The notes beneath the pieces were generated by a model. That model was given only the letters and a program-made list of their open reading frames with translations, was not told where the DNA came from and did no database searches. Below are positions 38,013 through 41,543 of a stretch of DNA of 64,000 bases, one piece after another. This DNA is from Myxococcota bacterium. Its GTDB lineage: Bacteria > Myxococcota_A > Polyangia > Nannocystales > Nannocystaceae. Within the stretch, counting starts at the first letter, position 1. Every line of letters starts with the position of its first letter. The translations under genes and the position numbers were made by a program. The DNA lies in assembly GCA_039028615.1 (NCBI GenBank), contig JBCCHT010000006.1, forward strand, positions 32,001 to 96,000, read 5' to 3'.

Positions 38013-39320
38013 TCAACCCGGGGGTGGCTCGTCGAGCCACCCCTGCCCCGTCTCGGCGATCGTGCGCGCCCACGGGAGCAACGACTCGGGCCAGTCTTCT
38101 TCGACGATCTCGAAGCGGGCATGGTCGAAGGGCTCGCCCGTCGCCGGCTGCACTCGCACCAGTCGCTCACGCCGGCCGCGGGTCATCAGATCGAGCGCAC
38201 GGTGGTGACACACGGGGTTGTTGCCCCGCCGCCCCGACAACACGTGACTCGTCCACGTGCAGCCGGCCTTGCAGACGTCGGCGTAGTAGCAGCTCGCGCA
38301 GTAGCCCCACAGGTCCTCGGTCTTGCGCCCTCGAGTGAAGCGCAGCGCCTTCGACCGCTCCCACACCGCCTGCAGACCGTGCTCGCGGACGTTGCCGCCG
38401 ACATAGGCATCGGTGGGCAAGGACGGGCAGCCCTTGATGTCGCCGTTGGCCTCGAGGCCCAGCGTGTCGCGCCCCGCCCCGCAGCCCGTACCGTGCCCCC
38501 GCGGCATGTGCCGACGAAAACGCCCCTCGTAGGGCCCGAAGTAGCCGACGTTGGTGCCCGGCCATAGCCGCACGCCGACCTGTTCGGTGCGCTCCTGCAG
38601 GCGCATCACCATCGGCATGACCTCGACCATCTGATAGGGCTGCAGCAGCAGGTCCGGCTCGTCGGCGGCGCGCCCCATGGCCACCGTGATCTGCACCTGC
38701 CACGAGTGGATCCCCAGCGGGTGCAACAGCTCGAAGAGCGGCTCGATCTGCTTGCGGTTGGGCTGACAGATCTGGGTGTTGACCGAGATCGGCATGCCCA
38801 CCGCATGAAGGTGCTCGAGCGCGCCGACGGCCGCGCGATGGCTGCCCTCGACCGCTCGCAGCTGGTCGTGGGTGTGTTCGAGACCATCGATGGAGACGGA
38901 GACCGTACCGATGCCGGCATCTTTGGCCCGCTGAGCCCGCTCGCGGGTGATCCCCCGCCCTCCCGTCGTCATGCCGCACTCGATGCCCGCGCCGACCAAG
39001 GCCGCCGCGATCCGATCCCAGTCGTCGCGCAGGTAGGCCTCGCCTCCGATGAGCGAGACCTCGCGGACCCCCAGATCGGCCATCTGCCGCACCATGTCGA
39101 GGGCTTCGTCCGTACTCAGCTCGTCGGGCCGAGCGTGACCCGCCCGCGACCCGCAGTGACGGCACGCGAGATCGCAACGCAGGGTGATCTCCCAGACCGC
39201 GTAGATCGGCCGCACCGAGTCGATGGGCCGCACCTCGTCGGCGAGCGGTAGGTGGGTCCGCGATGGCTTGGCGCGCGGAGCGATGGGCAGAGACCGCGGC
39301 CGAGGACCGAGTTCACTCAC
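38013..39320 (-). CDS. Radical SAM/SPASM peptide maturase, PlpX/splicease-like
   Basis: VWEITLRCDLACRHCGSRAG, IGGEAYLRDDW, WQVQITVAMGRA, GYFGPYE; SPASM cysteines CGAG...IKGCPSL...CxxC-x5-C-x3-C-x16-C. Confidence 0.9.
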   Translation of the reverse strand: MSELGPRPRSLPIAPRAKPSRTHLPLADEVRPIDSVRPIYAVWEITLRCDLACRHCGSRAGHARPDELSTDEALDMVRQMADLGVREVSLIGGEAYLRDDWDRIAAALVGAGIECGMTTGGRGITRERAQRAKDAGIGTVSVSIDGLEHTHDQLRAVEGSHRAAVGALEHLHAVGMPISVNTQICQPNRKQIEPLFELLHPLGIHSWQVQITVAMGRAADEPDLLLQPYQMVEVMPMVMRLQERTEQVGVRLWPGTNVGYFGPYEGRFRRHMPRGHGTGCGAGRDTLGLEANGDIKGCPSLPTDAYVGGNVREHGLQAVWERSKALRFTRGRKTEDLWGYCASCYYADVCKAGCTWTSHVLSGRRGNNPVCHHRALDLMTRGRRERLVRVQPATGEPFDHARFEIVEEDWPESLLPWARTIAETGQGWLDEPPPG

Positions 39321-39323
39321 CGG

Positions 39324-39848
39324 TCAGCCACCCGCGCCGGGTTTGGGCTTCGGCTCGGGTTTGGGCTTCGGCCGCGGCGCACCGCCGTACTTGGGCGCGG
39401 GGCGAGGCCGCTCTTCTTTGCCGGGCACGTCGACCTTTCGGGGCGGACCACCGTACTTGGTGGCGATGGGCCGCTCTTCGACCTCGGCGGGCGGCTTGTC
39501 GGCGACCTCTCCTCCATCGGCAGGCTCGCTCGGCTGCTTGGGTTGCTCGGGCGCCACCGCGTCGGGCGTGGCCGGCTCCTCGGGCTTGTCGGGCTCGGGC
39601 TTCGCCTCGGGCTTGGCTCCGCCATCGGCCTTGGCCGGCGTCTCGACCTTGGCCTTGTCGTCGGCCTTGCCGTCTGCTTTGGCCTTGCCGTCGTCACAGG
39701 CCGACAGCAGCATCAGCGGCAGGGCCAGCACCAGCGCTCGCGCCAGCACGGGGGCCGACGTGGTCGAGGACCGCCCACAAAACGGGCAGTGCTCGTCTTC
39801 GATTCGCACGTGACGCGTGCACCCCGGGCACTCGACCAGCTGGCTCAT
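39324..39848 (-). CDS. Putative radical SAM substrate: Zn-ribbon + lipobox + two KYGG motifs
   Basis: CPGCTRHV...CPFCG; hydrophobic LALPLMLLSAC; EERPIATKYGGPPR and EERPRPAPKYGGAPR; stop is 3 nt before the rSAM start. Confidence 0.8.
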   Translation of the reverse strand: MSQLVECPGCTRHVRIEDEHCPFCGRSSTTSAPVLARALVLALPLMLLSACDDGKAKADGKADDKAKVETPAKADGGAKPEAKPEPDKPEEPATPDAVAPEQPKQPSEPADGGEVADKPPAEVEERPIATKYGGPPRKVDVPGKEERPRPAPKYGGAPRPKPKPEPKPKPGAGG

Positions 39849-39905: not shown

Positions 39906-41375
39906 TCACTCCTCGGACGGCTTCTTGAAGATCATGCGCCGACCGGGCTTCTTGGTCGTGGGTTCGTCGTCCTTGTAGACGACCGTCTCGCGCTTGCCGT
40001 TCTCGTCGACTTCGACCCAGCGGCCCTGCTTCTTGCCCTCTTCGTACTTGCCCGAGGCCTTGAGGCTGCCGTCGTCGTACCAGTACTCGCCCTTGCCGTG
40101 GCGCTCGTCGTCCTTGTAATGCTCCCGGTACTCGCGCTCGCCGTTTTTGTAGAAGCCTTCCCACTCGCCCTGCTTGTCGCCGGTCTTGTACTCGCCCTCG
40201 GTCTTCTTCTGACCGTCGCGGAACCACCACATCCAGATGCCCTGGCGGCGGTTCTTCCAGTACTCGCCCTCGACCCGCTTCTGGCCGTTGTTCCAGTAGG
40301 CGAGGAACTCCCCTTCCCGCTTGCCGTCGAGGTAGTCGATCTCCTCCTTGACCCGCGAGTTGTTGTGGAACTCGGTCCAGCGGCCTTCCTTCTTGCCCTC
40401 GAGGAACTCGCCCTCGAGCTTGACCCCCGCGTCGGCGTCAGCGCTCTGCCACTGGGTCCAGGTGCCGTGCTTGATGCCGCCCTCTTTTTCGCACCACTGC
40501 TCTTTGCCATCGGGGGGCGCGGCGCCCTTGCTCACCAGGTCATCGCCGCAGTGGCCAGCCTCGACCTTGGCGCCGTCCTTCCACTCGTCCTCGGCGACCT
40601 TCTTGCCGTCTCGGTCGAACTCGACCCACTTGCCGTTCTTGCGACCATCGACGTAGGCGCCCTCGGCCGCGAGCTGGCCGTTGTCATGCCACGCGCGATG
40701 GGTGCCCTCTTCGGTGTCGTCCTTGTAGTTGCTCTCGTCGCGCTTTTGGCCGTTGTCGAAGAAGTGCACCCACTGCCCGTTGCGCTTGCCCTTGCGGTAC
40801 TCGCCGTCGCTGCGCTTTTGGCCATCCTCGGAGAAGGTCACCCAGCGCCCGTGCTTGACGTCGTCCTGGTACTCGCCTTCTTCCTGCTTTTGACCGTTTT
40901 CGTACCAACTGGTCGATTTGCCGTGCTTGTGGCCGTCCCGGTACTCGGTCTCGTGCCAGCGCTCGGAGGTGCCGTCGTGCCAGCGTGACCAGCGACCGTG
41001 CCGCACGGTGCGACCGTCCTTTTCGCGCTCGCACCATGCCTCGTGCCCGGCCGGGGGCGTTGCCCCCTTGGCCACCCCACCGTCGGGGCAGTCGATGGCG
41101 GGCGCAGCTGCGGCGGCTTCGGCTTCGGCGGCCGCCTCGTCTCCTGCCGCTTTGGCCTCCGCCCCGTCTTTGGCGTCTTCGGCCTTGCCCTCGTCCGCCT
41201 TGGCGTCGGCCTTGCTCTCGTCGGCCTTCGCTTCGTCCTTGGACTCGTCGGCTTTGGCCTCGTCCTTGGCTTCGTCGCCGCCACCGGTCAGCCGATCACA
41301 GGCGGGAGCGAACAACGTGAGGCTCGCGAGGCTCGCGAGCACGACGACACGATGACGGCGGACAGACATCGCCAT
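39906..41375 (-). CDS. MORN-variant repeat (YwqK-like) lipoprotein
   Basis: Many repeats of the form HGxWxxWYENGQKxxEGEYxxG; FAPAC lipobox-like; KADE-rich linker. Confidence 0.88.
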   Translation of the reverse strand: MAMSVRRHRVVVLASLASLTLFAPACDRLTGGGDEAKDEAKADESKDEAKADESKADAKADEGKAEDAKDGAEAKAAGDEAAAEAEAAAAAPAIDCPDGGVAKGATPPAGHEAWCEREKDGRTVRHGRWSRWHDGTSERWHETEYRDGHKHGKSTSWYENGQKQEEGEYQDDVKHGRWVTFSEDGQKRSDGEYRKGKRNGQWVHFFDNGQKRDESNYKDDTEEGTHRAWHDNGQLAAEGAYVDGRKNGKWVEFDRDGKKVAEDEWKDGAKVEAGHCGDDLVSKGAAPPDGKEQWCEKEGGIKHGTWTQWQSADADAGVKLEGEFLEGKKEGRWTEFHNNSRVKEEIDYLDGKREGEFLAYWNNGQKRVEGEYWKNRRQGIWMWWFRDGQKKTEGEYKTGDKQGEWEGFYKNGEREYREHYKDDERHGKGEYWYDDGSLKASGKYEEGKKQGRWVEVDENGKRETVVYKDDEPTTKKPGRRMIFKKPSEE

Positions 41376-41543
41376 GGACGGTGGCACACCCCACGGGGGC
41401 AGGGCAAAGTCTCCCCCGCGCCCCACCCCCGCGGGTGGCCCCCGCAGCGCCCGCGACGACGCGAAACGCCGTCGTCGGGCTCTCATGCTCGATGCGTCCC
41501 ACAAAGGCCCACTGGCCCAACCGCGGCCCGGGCCAAGCAGGCT

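Follow-up and report, generated by a model that had tools for sequence, protein, structure and literature searches.

A putative two-gene splicease system in Myxococcota with a lipoprotein-type substrate and a candidate zinc-ribbon docking handle

What does a radical S-adenosylmethionine (SAM) enzyme with a SPASM domain do beside a protein that reads like a lipoprotein and carries two copies of the motif KYGG? The question is raised by two adjacent genes in a 64,000-nucleotide stretch of the genome of a Myxococcota bacterium of the Nannocystaceae (contig JBCCHT010000006.1), the whole of which we call the window. The original prediction, made from the letters alone, took the enzyme for a relative of the PlpX-type spliceases, which excise tyramine at XYG motifs and leave ketoamide residues, and its neighbor for a membrane-tethered substrate. 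Our analysis points to a two-gene splicease system that would operate without a Y protein and whose substrate would be a pre-lipoprotein: enzyme and precursor would form a pair, a zinc ribbon at the start of the precursor would dock onto the enzyme, a tyramine equivalent would be excised in the cytoplasm, and the modified protein would be exported as a lipoprotein. To these four steps taken together we assign a probability of about 0.65. The predicted two-gene layout was recovered as announced, with a 174-residue open reading frame (ORF) ending 3 nt before the start of the enzyme ORF, and the ribbon, the hydrophobic stretch running to LSAC, the disordered linker and both KYGG sites were all found where expected:

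39324 to 39848, minus strand: precursor (substrate) gene, 174 amino acids, with zinc ribbon, lipoprotein-type signal and disordered arm bearing two KYGG
38013 to 39320, minus strand: splicease-type radical SAM/SPASM enzyme, 435 amino acids, so called from its TIGR04103/TIGR03913 scores, its PF04055 and PF13186 domains and the tree
39777 to 39830, minus strand: Cys4 zinc ribbon, precursor residues 7-24, CxxCxRH...CPFC, predicted enzyme-docking handle
39696 to 39740, minus strand: R37, hydrophobic stretch and lipobox L48-S49-A50-C51, with the predicted lipidation Cys at 39696-39698
39327 to 39695, minus strand: disordered arm of the predicted mature protein, residues 52-174, with abundant K, A, P, E and D (sequence and Atlas model)
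39447 to 39458, minus strand: first predicted splice site K-Y-G-G, in T-KYGG-PP, residue 131 (family motif X-Y-G-[AG]-P-P)
39381 to 39392, minus strand: second predicted splice site K-Y-G-G, in P-KYGG-AP, residue 153 (sequence)
39153 to 39176, minus strand: radical SAM motif CxxxCxxC, C49/C53/C56, invariant in the enzyme alignment
38526 to 38546, minus strand: GYFGPYE motif, enzyme residues 259-265, centre of the predicted ribbon-docking surface
38208 to 38483, minus strand: SPASM cysteines C280, C298, C341, C344, C350, C354 and C371, with Y345/Y346 in the predicted interface

The enzyme carries PF04055 and PF13186 above cut-off, i.e. a radical SAM domain with a SPASM domain, and the five motifs quoted for it beforehand are all present, at residues 42, 207, 259, 295 and 367. 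Scored against the NCBIfam profiles, as had been proposed, it has TIGR04103 (483 bits, cut-off 725) and TIGR03913 (441.5 bits, cut-off 591.75, match over profile positions 17-389 of 477) as its two best families, far above the next one at 158 bits, although both scores remain under the curated cut-offs. Heme d1/NirJ, PqqE, mycofactocin and sactipeptide families were rejected for it, all at 158 bits or less. Among 44 aligned enzymes the CxxxCxxC motif, all seven SPASM cysteines and G259, G262, P263 and E265 of GYFGPYE are invariant. A Nostoc plasmid protein, which belongs to TIGR04103 above cut-off (853 bits) and adjoins a Nif11 precursor with an LYG motif, is 52% identical to the enzyme, and the motifs common to both are kept over the whole length. 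Trees were built with FastTree on 111 enzyme rows and with IQ-TREE (LG+G4) on 32 of these; in the latter, myxobacterial enzymes, the Nostoc TIGR04103 member and GDL-type enzymes form one clade with support 99/98, and the TIGR04133 enzyme and two others fall outside it on long branches. The window enzyme is placed among Nannocystaceae enzymes, its closest named relative (81% identity) being that of Paraliomyxa miuraensis. No close splicease structure was found by sequence search of the PDB. The enzyme very probably works like a splicease, yet it belongs to neither curated subfamily: the precursor has no Nif11 match and the leader profile does not resemble the Y-like gene next to the Nostoc enzyme, as type I would have it, and the enzyme tail bears no ribbon, as the GDL type would. 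Nor does the TIGR04133/TIGR04134 pair fit, with 156 bits for the enzyme (cut-off 425) and no TIGR04134 match of the precursor at E <=0.01. PlpX itself is assigned to the IPR026482 class (PMC11002830).

Judged by its sequence, the precursor belongs to a large unnamed Myxococcota family composed of a Cys4 ribbon, a lipoprotein-type signal and a disordered arm; it has no NCBIfam or Pfam family above cut-off, matches the family leader profile with E 6e-14, and the two relatives that bear a name are both annotated 'hypothetical protein'. Its ribbon is spelled C7-x2-C10-x-R12-H13...C21-P-F-C24, and in an alignment of 96 leaders, for which the Cys pattern was itself part of the selection, C7, C10, C21, F23 and C24 are invariant and R12, H13 and P22 are kept at 90% or more. 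The leader is modelled with a predicted local distance difference test (pLDDT) of about 90 across residues 1-20; a fold search gave a weak likeness to RanBP2/NZF fingers (best E 0.09) and no match at E <=0.001. The arm consists of 123 low-complexity residues whose only two tyrosines are those of the KYGG sites, and the Atlas model of the arm-bearing precursor has a predicted template modelling score of 0.18 and a mean pLDDT of 0.49.

To follow the sites across the family, the best 80 loci from 273 confirmed relatives were taken as a sample. Ribbon precursors, one to five of them within up to 4 kb, occur at 62 of the 80; the other 18 comprise 11 Acidobacteriota loci with another substrate type and seven of myxobacterial type (three short contigs, one cut precursor, one variant missed by the pattern and two with none seen). 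In the mature regions of 135 neighboring precursors, 344 of 394 tyrosines are followed by glycine (Gly frequency 0.15), mostly as YG[AG]PP. The relatives are not independent, so that a binomial significance of this excess is overstated; once the set is reduced to 68 leaders that share less than 60% identity, Tyr-Gly still accounts for 151 of 187 tyrosines. A leader-only profile search returned 4,990 clusters at E <=0.001, of which 1,482 reach E <=1e-10 with generic ribbon proteins among the latter, and its 150 listed matches, less 13 generic multi-ribbon proteins and one missed by the pattern, left 136 proteins chosen regardless of neighbors or YG, in which 295 of 313 tyrosines are YG (13 of the 136 have none, several of these appearing cut or frameshifted). 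Cores repeat one to five times per protein with low-complexity spacers between them. The residue X is varied (L, A, M, R, P, E, K, D, V, F). Lys-derived ketoamides, which the original prediction had expected, fit the window copy and its Nannocystaceae relatives (L001, L004-L007), of which Lys at X is typical, but not the family, where Lys occupies 16 of 344 sites in the neighbor set and 4 of 295 in the leader-only set; its rarity means that a Lys-specific protease trap is not general. The two findings that the original prediction had named as fatal at the sequence level, clustering with heme d1/PqqE-like or other non-splicease families and loss of the YG motif beside orthologues, are the reverse of what the profile scores, the tree and these counts gave. 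In several precursors the lipobox cysteine is itself X, as A-C-Y-G (G000:C8:122970 and G000:C26:121490, both plus strand; L051, L088, L089, L090, L094); splicing there would turn the lipid-anchor cysteine into a ketoamide residue, or both modifications would compete. The enzymes of C8 and L051 group together in the tree. Two precursors at L069 (3289-3849 and 5240-5863, minus strand) have a C-terminal KPYGAPP site preceded by a CarboxypepD_reg domain, which the TIGR04134 lipoprotein of the Bacteroidota locus L086 weakly matches too.

Genome-level counts bring enzyme and leader together as well. The full enzyme (at least 454 bits, above a natural score gap with the next at 370 or less) was found in 63 of 251 Myxococcota genomes and the leader (E <=1e-5) in 43 of 251, and 41 of these 43 have the full enzyme; since 25 and 7 candidates were scored per genome, the counts are lower bounds, the kin genomes among them lack independence, and the scores were already in view when both thresholds were chosen. 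Of the two leader genomes lacking a full enzyme, one has an enzyme fragment beside the leader, and the ribbon protein of the other has no YG. Among genomes with the enzyme and without a leader match, 15 of 16 were inspected: 11 have a diverged ribbon protein with YG (ten with the Cys, L096 without), two have a degenerate ribbon, one is cut by a contig end and in one none was seen. We regard it as nearly certain that enzyme and precursor, adjacent in the window and co-occurring across Myxococcota, are an enzyme-substrate pair. The source genome holds six full enzyme paralogues and one broken one, with nine leader-bearing proteins. Five of its enzymes adjoin a partner; the C42 enzyme, the C26, C30 and C35 precursors and one C1 precursor stand apart, which implies that some modification probably happens in trans, and the C35 precursor has a TKYGGPP core identical to that of the window precursor.

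How would such an enzyme find its substrate? The ribbon, to which the original prediction had given no role, is likely an enzyme-docking element, and the first pointer to this is its occurrence on enzymes. An Azospirillum GDL-type enzyme ends in a stretch resembling the precursor ribbon. Of the 111 enzymes, 100 had the motif used to delimit a C-terminal tail, and the leader profile matches the tails of 13 of 13 GDL/DUF1843-clade enzymes (E 2e-13 to 8e-8) and of 0 of the other 87. These 13, the whole clade among those scored, are from 11 Acidobacteriota, Azospirillum and Aureibacter, i.e. three phyla; after the fused ribbon comes a charged helix without Cys, and at 10 of 11 Acidobacteriota loci DUF1843 peptides with YG and without a ribbon were seen as the substrates. 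As far as sequence can tell, the ribbon is on the enzyme or on the substrate and never on both among the enzymes and loci examined. The second pointer is a model of enzyme residues 28-408 with leader residues 1-55, which scores 0.92 against 0.01 for the best of three controls; the mark used was attained by 116 of 157 solved pairs and by 2 of 215 mismatched ones, counts that hold roughly here because the model was run with custom alignments and ligands, outside the calibration. The runs agree in at least 70% of contacts, with a partner pLDDT of at least 66. Confident contacts lead from R12/H13 of the leader to enzyme residues 261-267, 274-278 and 345-349, and the leader's hydrophobic stretch is not among them. 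The interface residues H276, Y345, Y346 and D348 are kept in 93 myxobacterial enzymes and largely in the 13 GDL enzymes, and read F/K/F/E in the type I enzyme (n=1). The model supports binding, and with both pointers together it is highly probable that the ribbon docks on the enzyme, with its R12-H13 face predicted to sit on the GYFGPYE/YY surface beside the SPASM clusters, where it would serve as a recognition or activator handle, the job done elsewhere by PlpY or by the RhaA leader helix. Both of the latter activate their enzymes, also as engineered C-terminal fusions (PMC11414181), and by analogy the GDL enzymes, as nature has them, resemble the engineered PlpX-PlpY and RhaX-leader fusions.

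Once docked, the precursor would lose C8H9NO (about -135.07 Da, the equivalent of tyramine) from one K-Y-G site or from both in the cytoplasm, which would leave alpha-keto-beta-lysine amides in the arm; family membership makes excision at KYG a strong expectation. Splicing would precede export by Sec, after which C51 would be lipidated by Lgt and LspA would remove the leader, so that the ribbon remains in the cytoplasm and the housekeeping lipoprotein pathway replaces a dedicated leader peptidase and exporter of the kind used for peptides that are made on ribosomes and modified post-translationally (RiPPs). LSAC closes, at C51, a 15-residue stretch of mean Kyte-Doolittle hydropathy 1.95 with the basic R37 ahead of it, so that basic n-region, h-region and lipobox are all present by pattern, and it conforms to L-[AST]-[GA]-C, the M. 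xanthus lipobox (PMC3222651). The lipoprotein features claimed for the substrate extend to the whole family: the first Cys after the ribbon stands in a relaxed lipobox in 119 of 135 neighboring precursors and 130 of 136 leader-only proteins, a single Cys comes after the ribbon in 117 of 135 and 124 of 136, Ala or Gly precedes this lone Cys in 128 of 135, and it lies a median of 14 uncharged residues beyond the last Arg or Lys. The source genome has four LspA and five Lgt genes, proteins that most bacteria possess. Lipoprotein export of the precursor is, from these patterns, quite likely. Export by Tat was rejected, the window copy having the single R37 and no twin Arg (family consensus RLxRAA). 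The mature protein has Asp at +2, which in E. coli directs to the inner membrane, and has neither of the M. xanthus signals, Lys at +2 and Ala at +7; these sorting signals are uninformative as to the membrane or face that would hold the arm.

Several observations weigh against these steps. The enzyme's shortfall from both cut-offs and the uncalibrated setting of the complex model have been given; in addition, the single Nostoc TIGR04103 member stands in for PlpX, PcpX and RhaX in the tree. A folded domain of 24 residues ahead of a signal peptide is unusual. The strict lipobox [LVI][ASTVI][GAS]C is present in just 55 of 135 precursors, and h-regions are often Ala-rich, with a median hydropathy of 1.3. 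At L096 (1755-2738, plus strand) a protein with ribbon, hydrophobic stretch and YGPP has an AxA-type signal end without Cys, followed by a folded domain, and is possibly a secreted, non-lipidated substrate. Splicing at KYG was not found in the available parts of the splicease literature searched, nor did the literature search turn up experimental work on any family member, and a YG site can stay unmodified, as does DYG of RcsA (PMC11626197). Two rivals draw on such points. The enzyme might target the YG sites by other radical chemistry, e.g. a Tyr crosslink, as its scores under both cut-offs would allow. Radical SAM/SPASM families do change chemistry across short distances, yet the motifs shared with TIGR04103 are kept along the whole length and the same XYG motif is targeted, and we consider this reading improbable. 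Still less credit goes to a substrate that undergoes the same chemistry as an uncleaved single-pass membrane protein, with cytoplasmic ribbon, signal anchor and unlipidated C51. A zinc ribbon followed by a membrane anchor and an outer domain is a common bacterial layout, found in clusters among the Atlas structure neighbors of the precursor (all weak, TM <0.4), and the scarcity of the strict lipobox speaks for it too; a lone Cys that closes the hydrophobic stretch in most members, with Ala or Gly before it, and an uncharged run short for a membrane span do not.

The last step of the proposed mechanism, and the least certain, is an envelope-anchored flexible arm displaying electrophilic ketoamides. 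Our leading guess for its role, itself rather doubtful, is that of a tethered reversible inhibitor of Ser/Cys proteases, an activity known for ketoamides and seen in three synthetic spliceotides (PMC9811515, PMC10849128); the variety of residues at X speaks against a single protease as target. Two other roles would fit the same four steps. In the somewhat less likely one, the protein is a multi-core RiPP carrier from which general envelope proteases free ketoamide peptides (X-YG-[AG]-PP). Repeated cores between spacers are what cassette-type RiPP precursors show, and the family has them in its one to five cores; protease inhibition by synthetic spliceotide peptides (PMC9811515) agrees with release, but no peptidase or transporter was found to recur among neighbors of myxobacterial loci, as judged by crude clustering, and the folded C-terminal domains of some substrates (CarboxypepD_reg at L069, Cu-binding_MopE at L051) suit a protein product better. 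Less likely again, the ketoamides would be covalent handles that form imines or crosslinks with envelope or matrix amines or, where X is Lys, cyclize with the amine of that side chain. Within proteins the electrophilicity of the alpha-keto group is unique (PMC9811515), and broad tolerance at X together with fixed YGxP spacing suits a structural role; against it, the same crude clustering of neighbors found no conserved partner gene.

Among known systems, the type I spliceotide systems of Pleurocapsa are reported in Morinaka 2018. PlpA/PlpX/PlpY and PcpAXY (TIGR04103, 'nif11-class peptide radical SAM maturase 3'; PMC11414181) share with the window system the radical SAM/SPASM enzyme, XYG sites and a small enzyme-binding element; in contrast, the latter has neither a Nif11 leader nor a Y protein, its handle being a zinc ribbon on a substrate with a lipoprotein signal. 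The type II binary spliceases RhaX/RcsX/RasX of Rheinheimera (PMC11414181, PMC11626197) likewise have two components and a leader that carries the activating element, which is an alpha-helix there, whereas the confident contacts modelled here come from the ribbon only. Lipoproteins are not mentioned in the available parts of the main texts of PMC11414181 and PMC11626197 or of the Chem Sci supplement. GDL-motif/DUF1843 systems (TIGR03913, PF08898) have in common with ours the enzyme clade, YG-bearing substrates and the same zinc ribbon, which is the C-terminal domain of the enzyme in their case, the substrates being peptides of 55-90 residues without ribbon, signal or Cys. Scott 2022 is reported to describe splicing by these systems. 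The Bacteroidota pair TIGR04133/TIGR04134 (L086) also sets a radical SAM/SPASM gene beside a putative lipoprotein with YGxP, yet its enzyme, outside the clade, is 32% identical to ours and its lipoprotein has an ordinary short signal without a ribbon.

The survey by Scott 2022 (Chem 8:2659), as relayed in PMC10849128, covers YG-rich loci in 189 genera with 27 pairs confirmed, and is reported to divide spliceases into types I-V; by our estimate there are roughly even odds that it lists these myxobacterial precursors. Literature searches gave, among the matches listed, no paper that deals with splicease substrates from myxobacteria or with ones that are lipoproteins or carry a zinc ribbon. Spliceases, a YG-bearing radical SAM-lipoprotein pair and a genus-wide survey are already known; new here is the ribbon fused to GDL-clade enzymes. 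We tentatively propose, at odds somewhat short of even, that the zinc ribbon serves RiPP systems as a module for recognition or activation not described before, placed on the enzyme in GDL systems and on the substrate in Myxococcota, where the leader doubles as a lipoprotein signal, and that roughly one in four of the Myxococcota genomes sampled would yield membrane-anchored lipoproteins bearing as many as five backbone ketoamides. The ribbon would then add a third mode of substrate recognition by spliceases, and its natural fusion to enzymes suggests a portable 24-residue tag for protein engineering. Furthermore, according to two 2022 reviews (PMC9811515, PMC8868522), no native spliceotide product had yet been isolated, and one of the two adds that the biological role of such products is unknown; membrane-anchored ketoamide lipoproteins, if true, would be native products that membrane proteomics can find, and an intact lipoprotein could be sought directly in membrane fractions of the cultured relative Paraliomyxa miuraensis.

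Some minor observations concern the paralogues and the surroundings of the locus. At many loci of Polyangiales type, two enzyme paralogues that belong to different subclades lie near each other, with several precursors beside them (L003, L008-L011, L014, L015, L018-L020, L022-L025, L029, L030, L033, L034, L057). The broken gene of the source genome (G000:C80:11300-12850, minus strand) apparently consists of two fragments of a seventh paralogue with an unrelated 165-residue ORF between them. Three leader-bearing paralogues (G000:C1:7759, C1:672363 and C30:88655, all minus strand) carry Y-A-G-[PC] motifs, both C1 copies without YG and the C30 copy with YG as well, which may reflect another specificity or dead sites; C1:7759 and C2:294836 have a large Cys-rich C-terminal domain. 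At the locus itself, a promoter and terminator scan gave nothing above shuffled sequence. A probable lipoprotein with MORN_2 repeats (39906-41504, minus strand) lies 57 nt upstream of the cassette on the same strand; it was rejected as a component of the system, recurring at 1 of 80 loci (L004). The exact precursor sequence is absent from a collection of 15 billion proteins in which the enzyme is present, so it may be overlooked or wrongly placed by one gene caller; the ESM Atlas has it. The precursor has a GC content at third codon positions of 0.84, and a 578-residue antisense ORF overlaps it.

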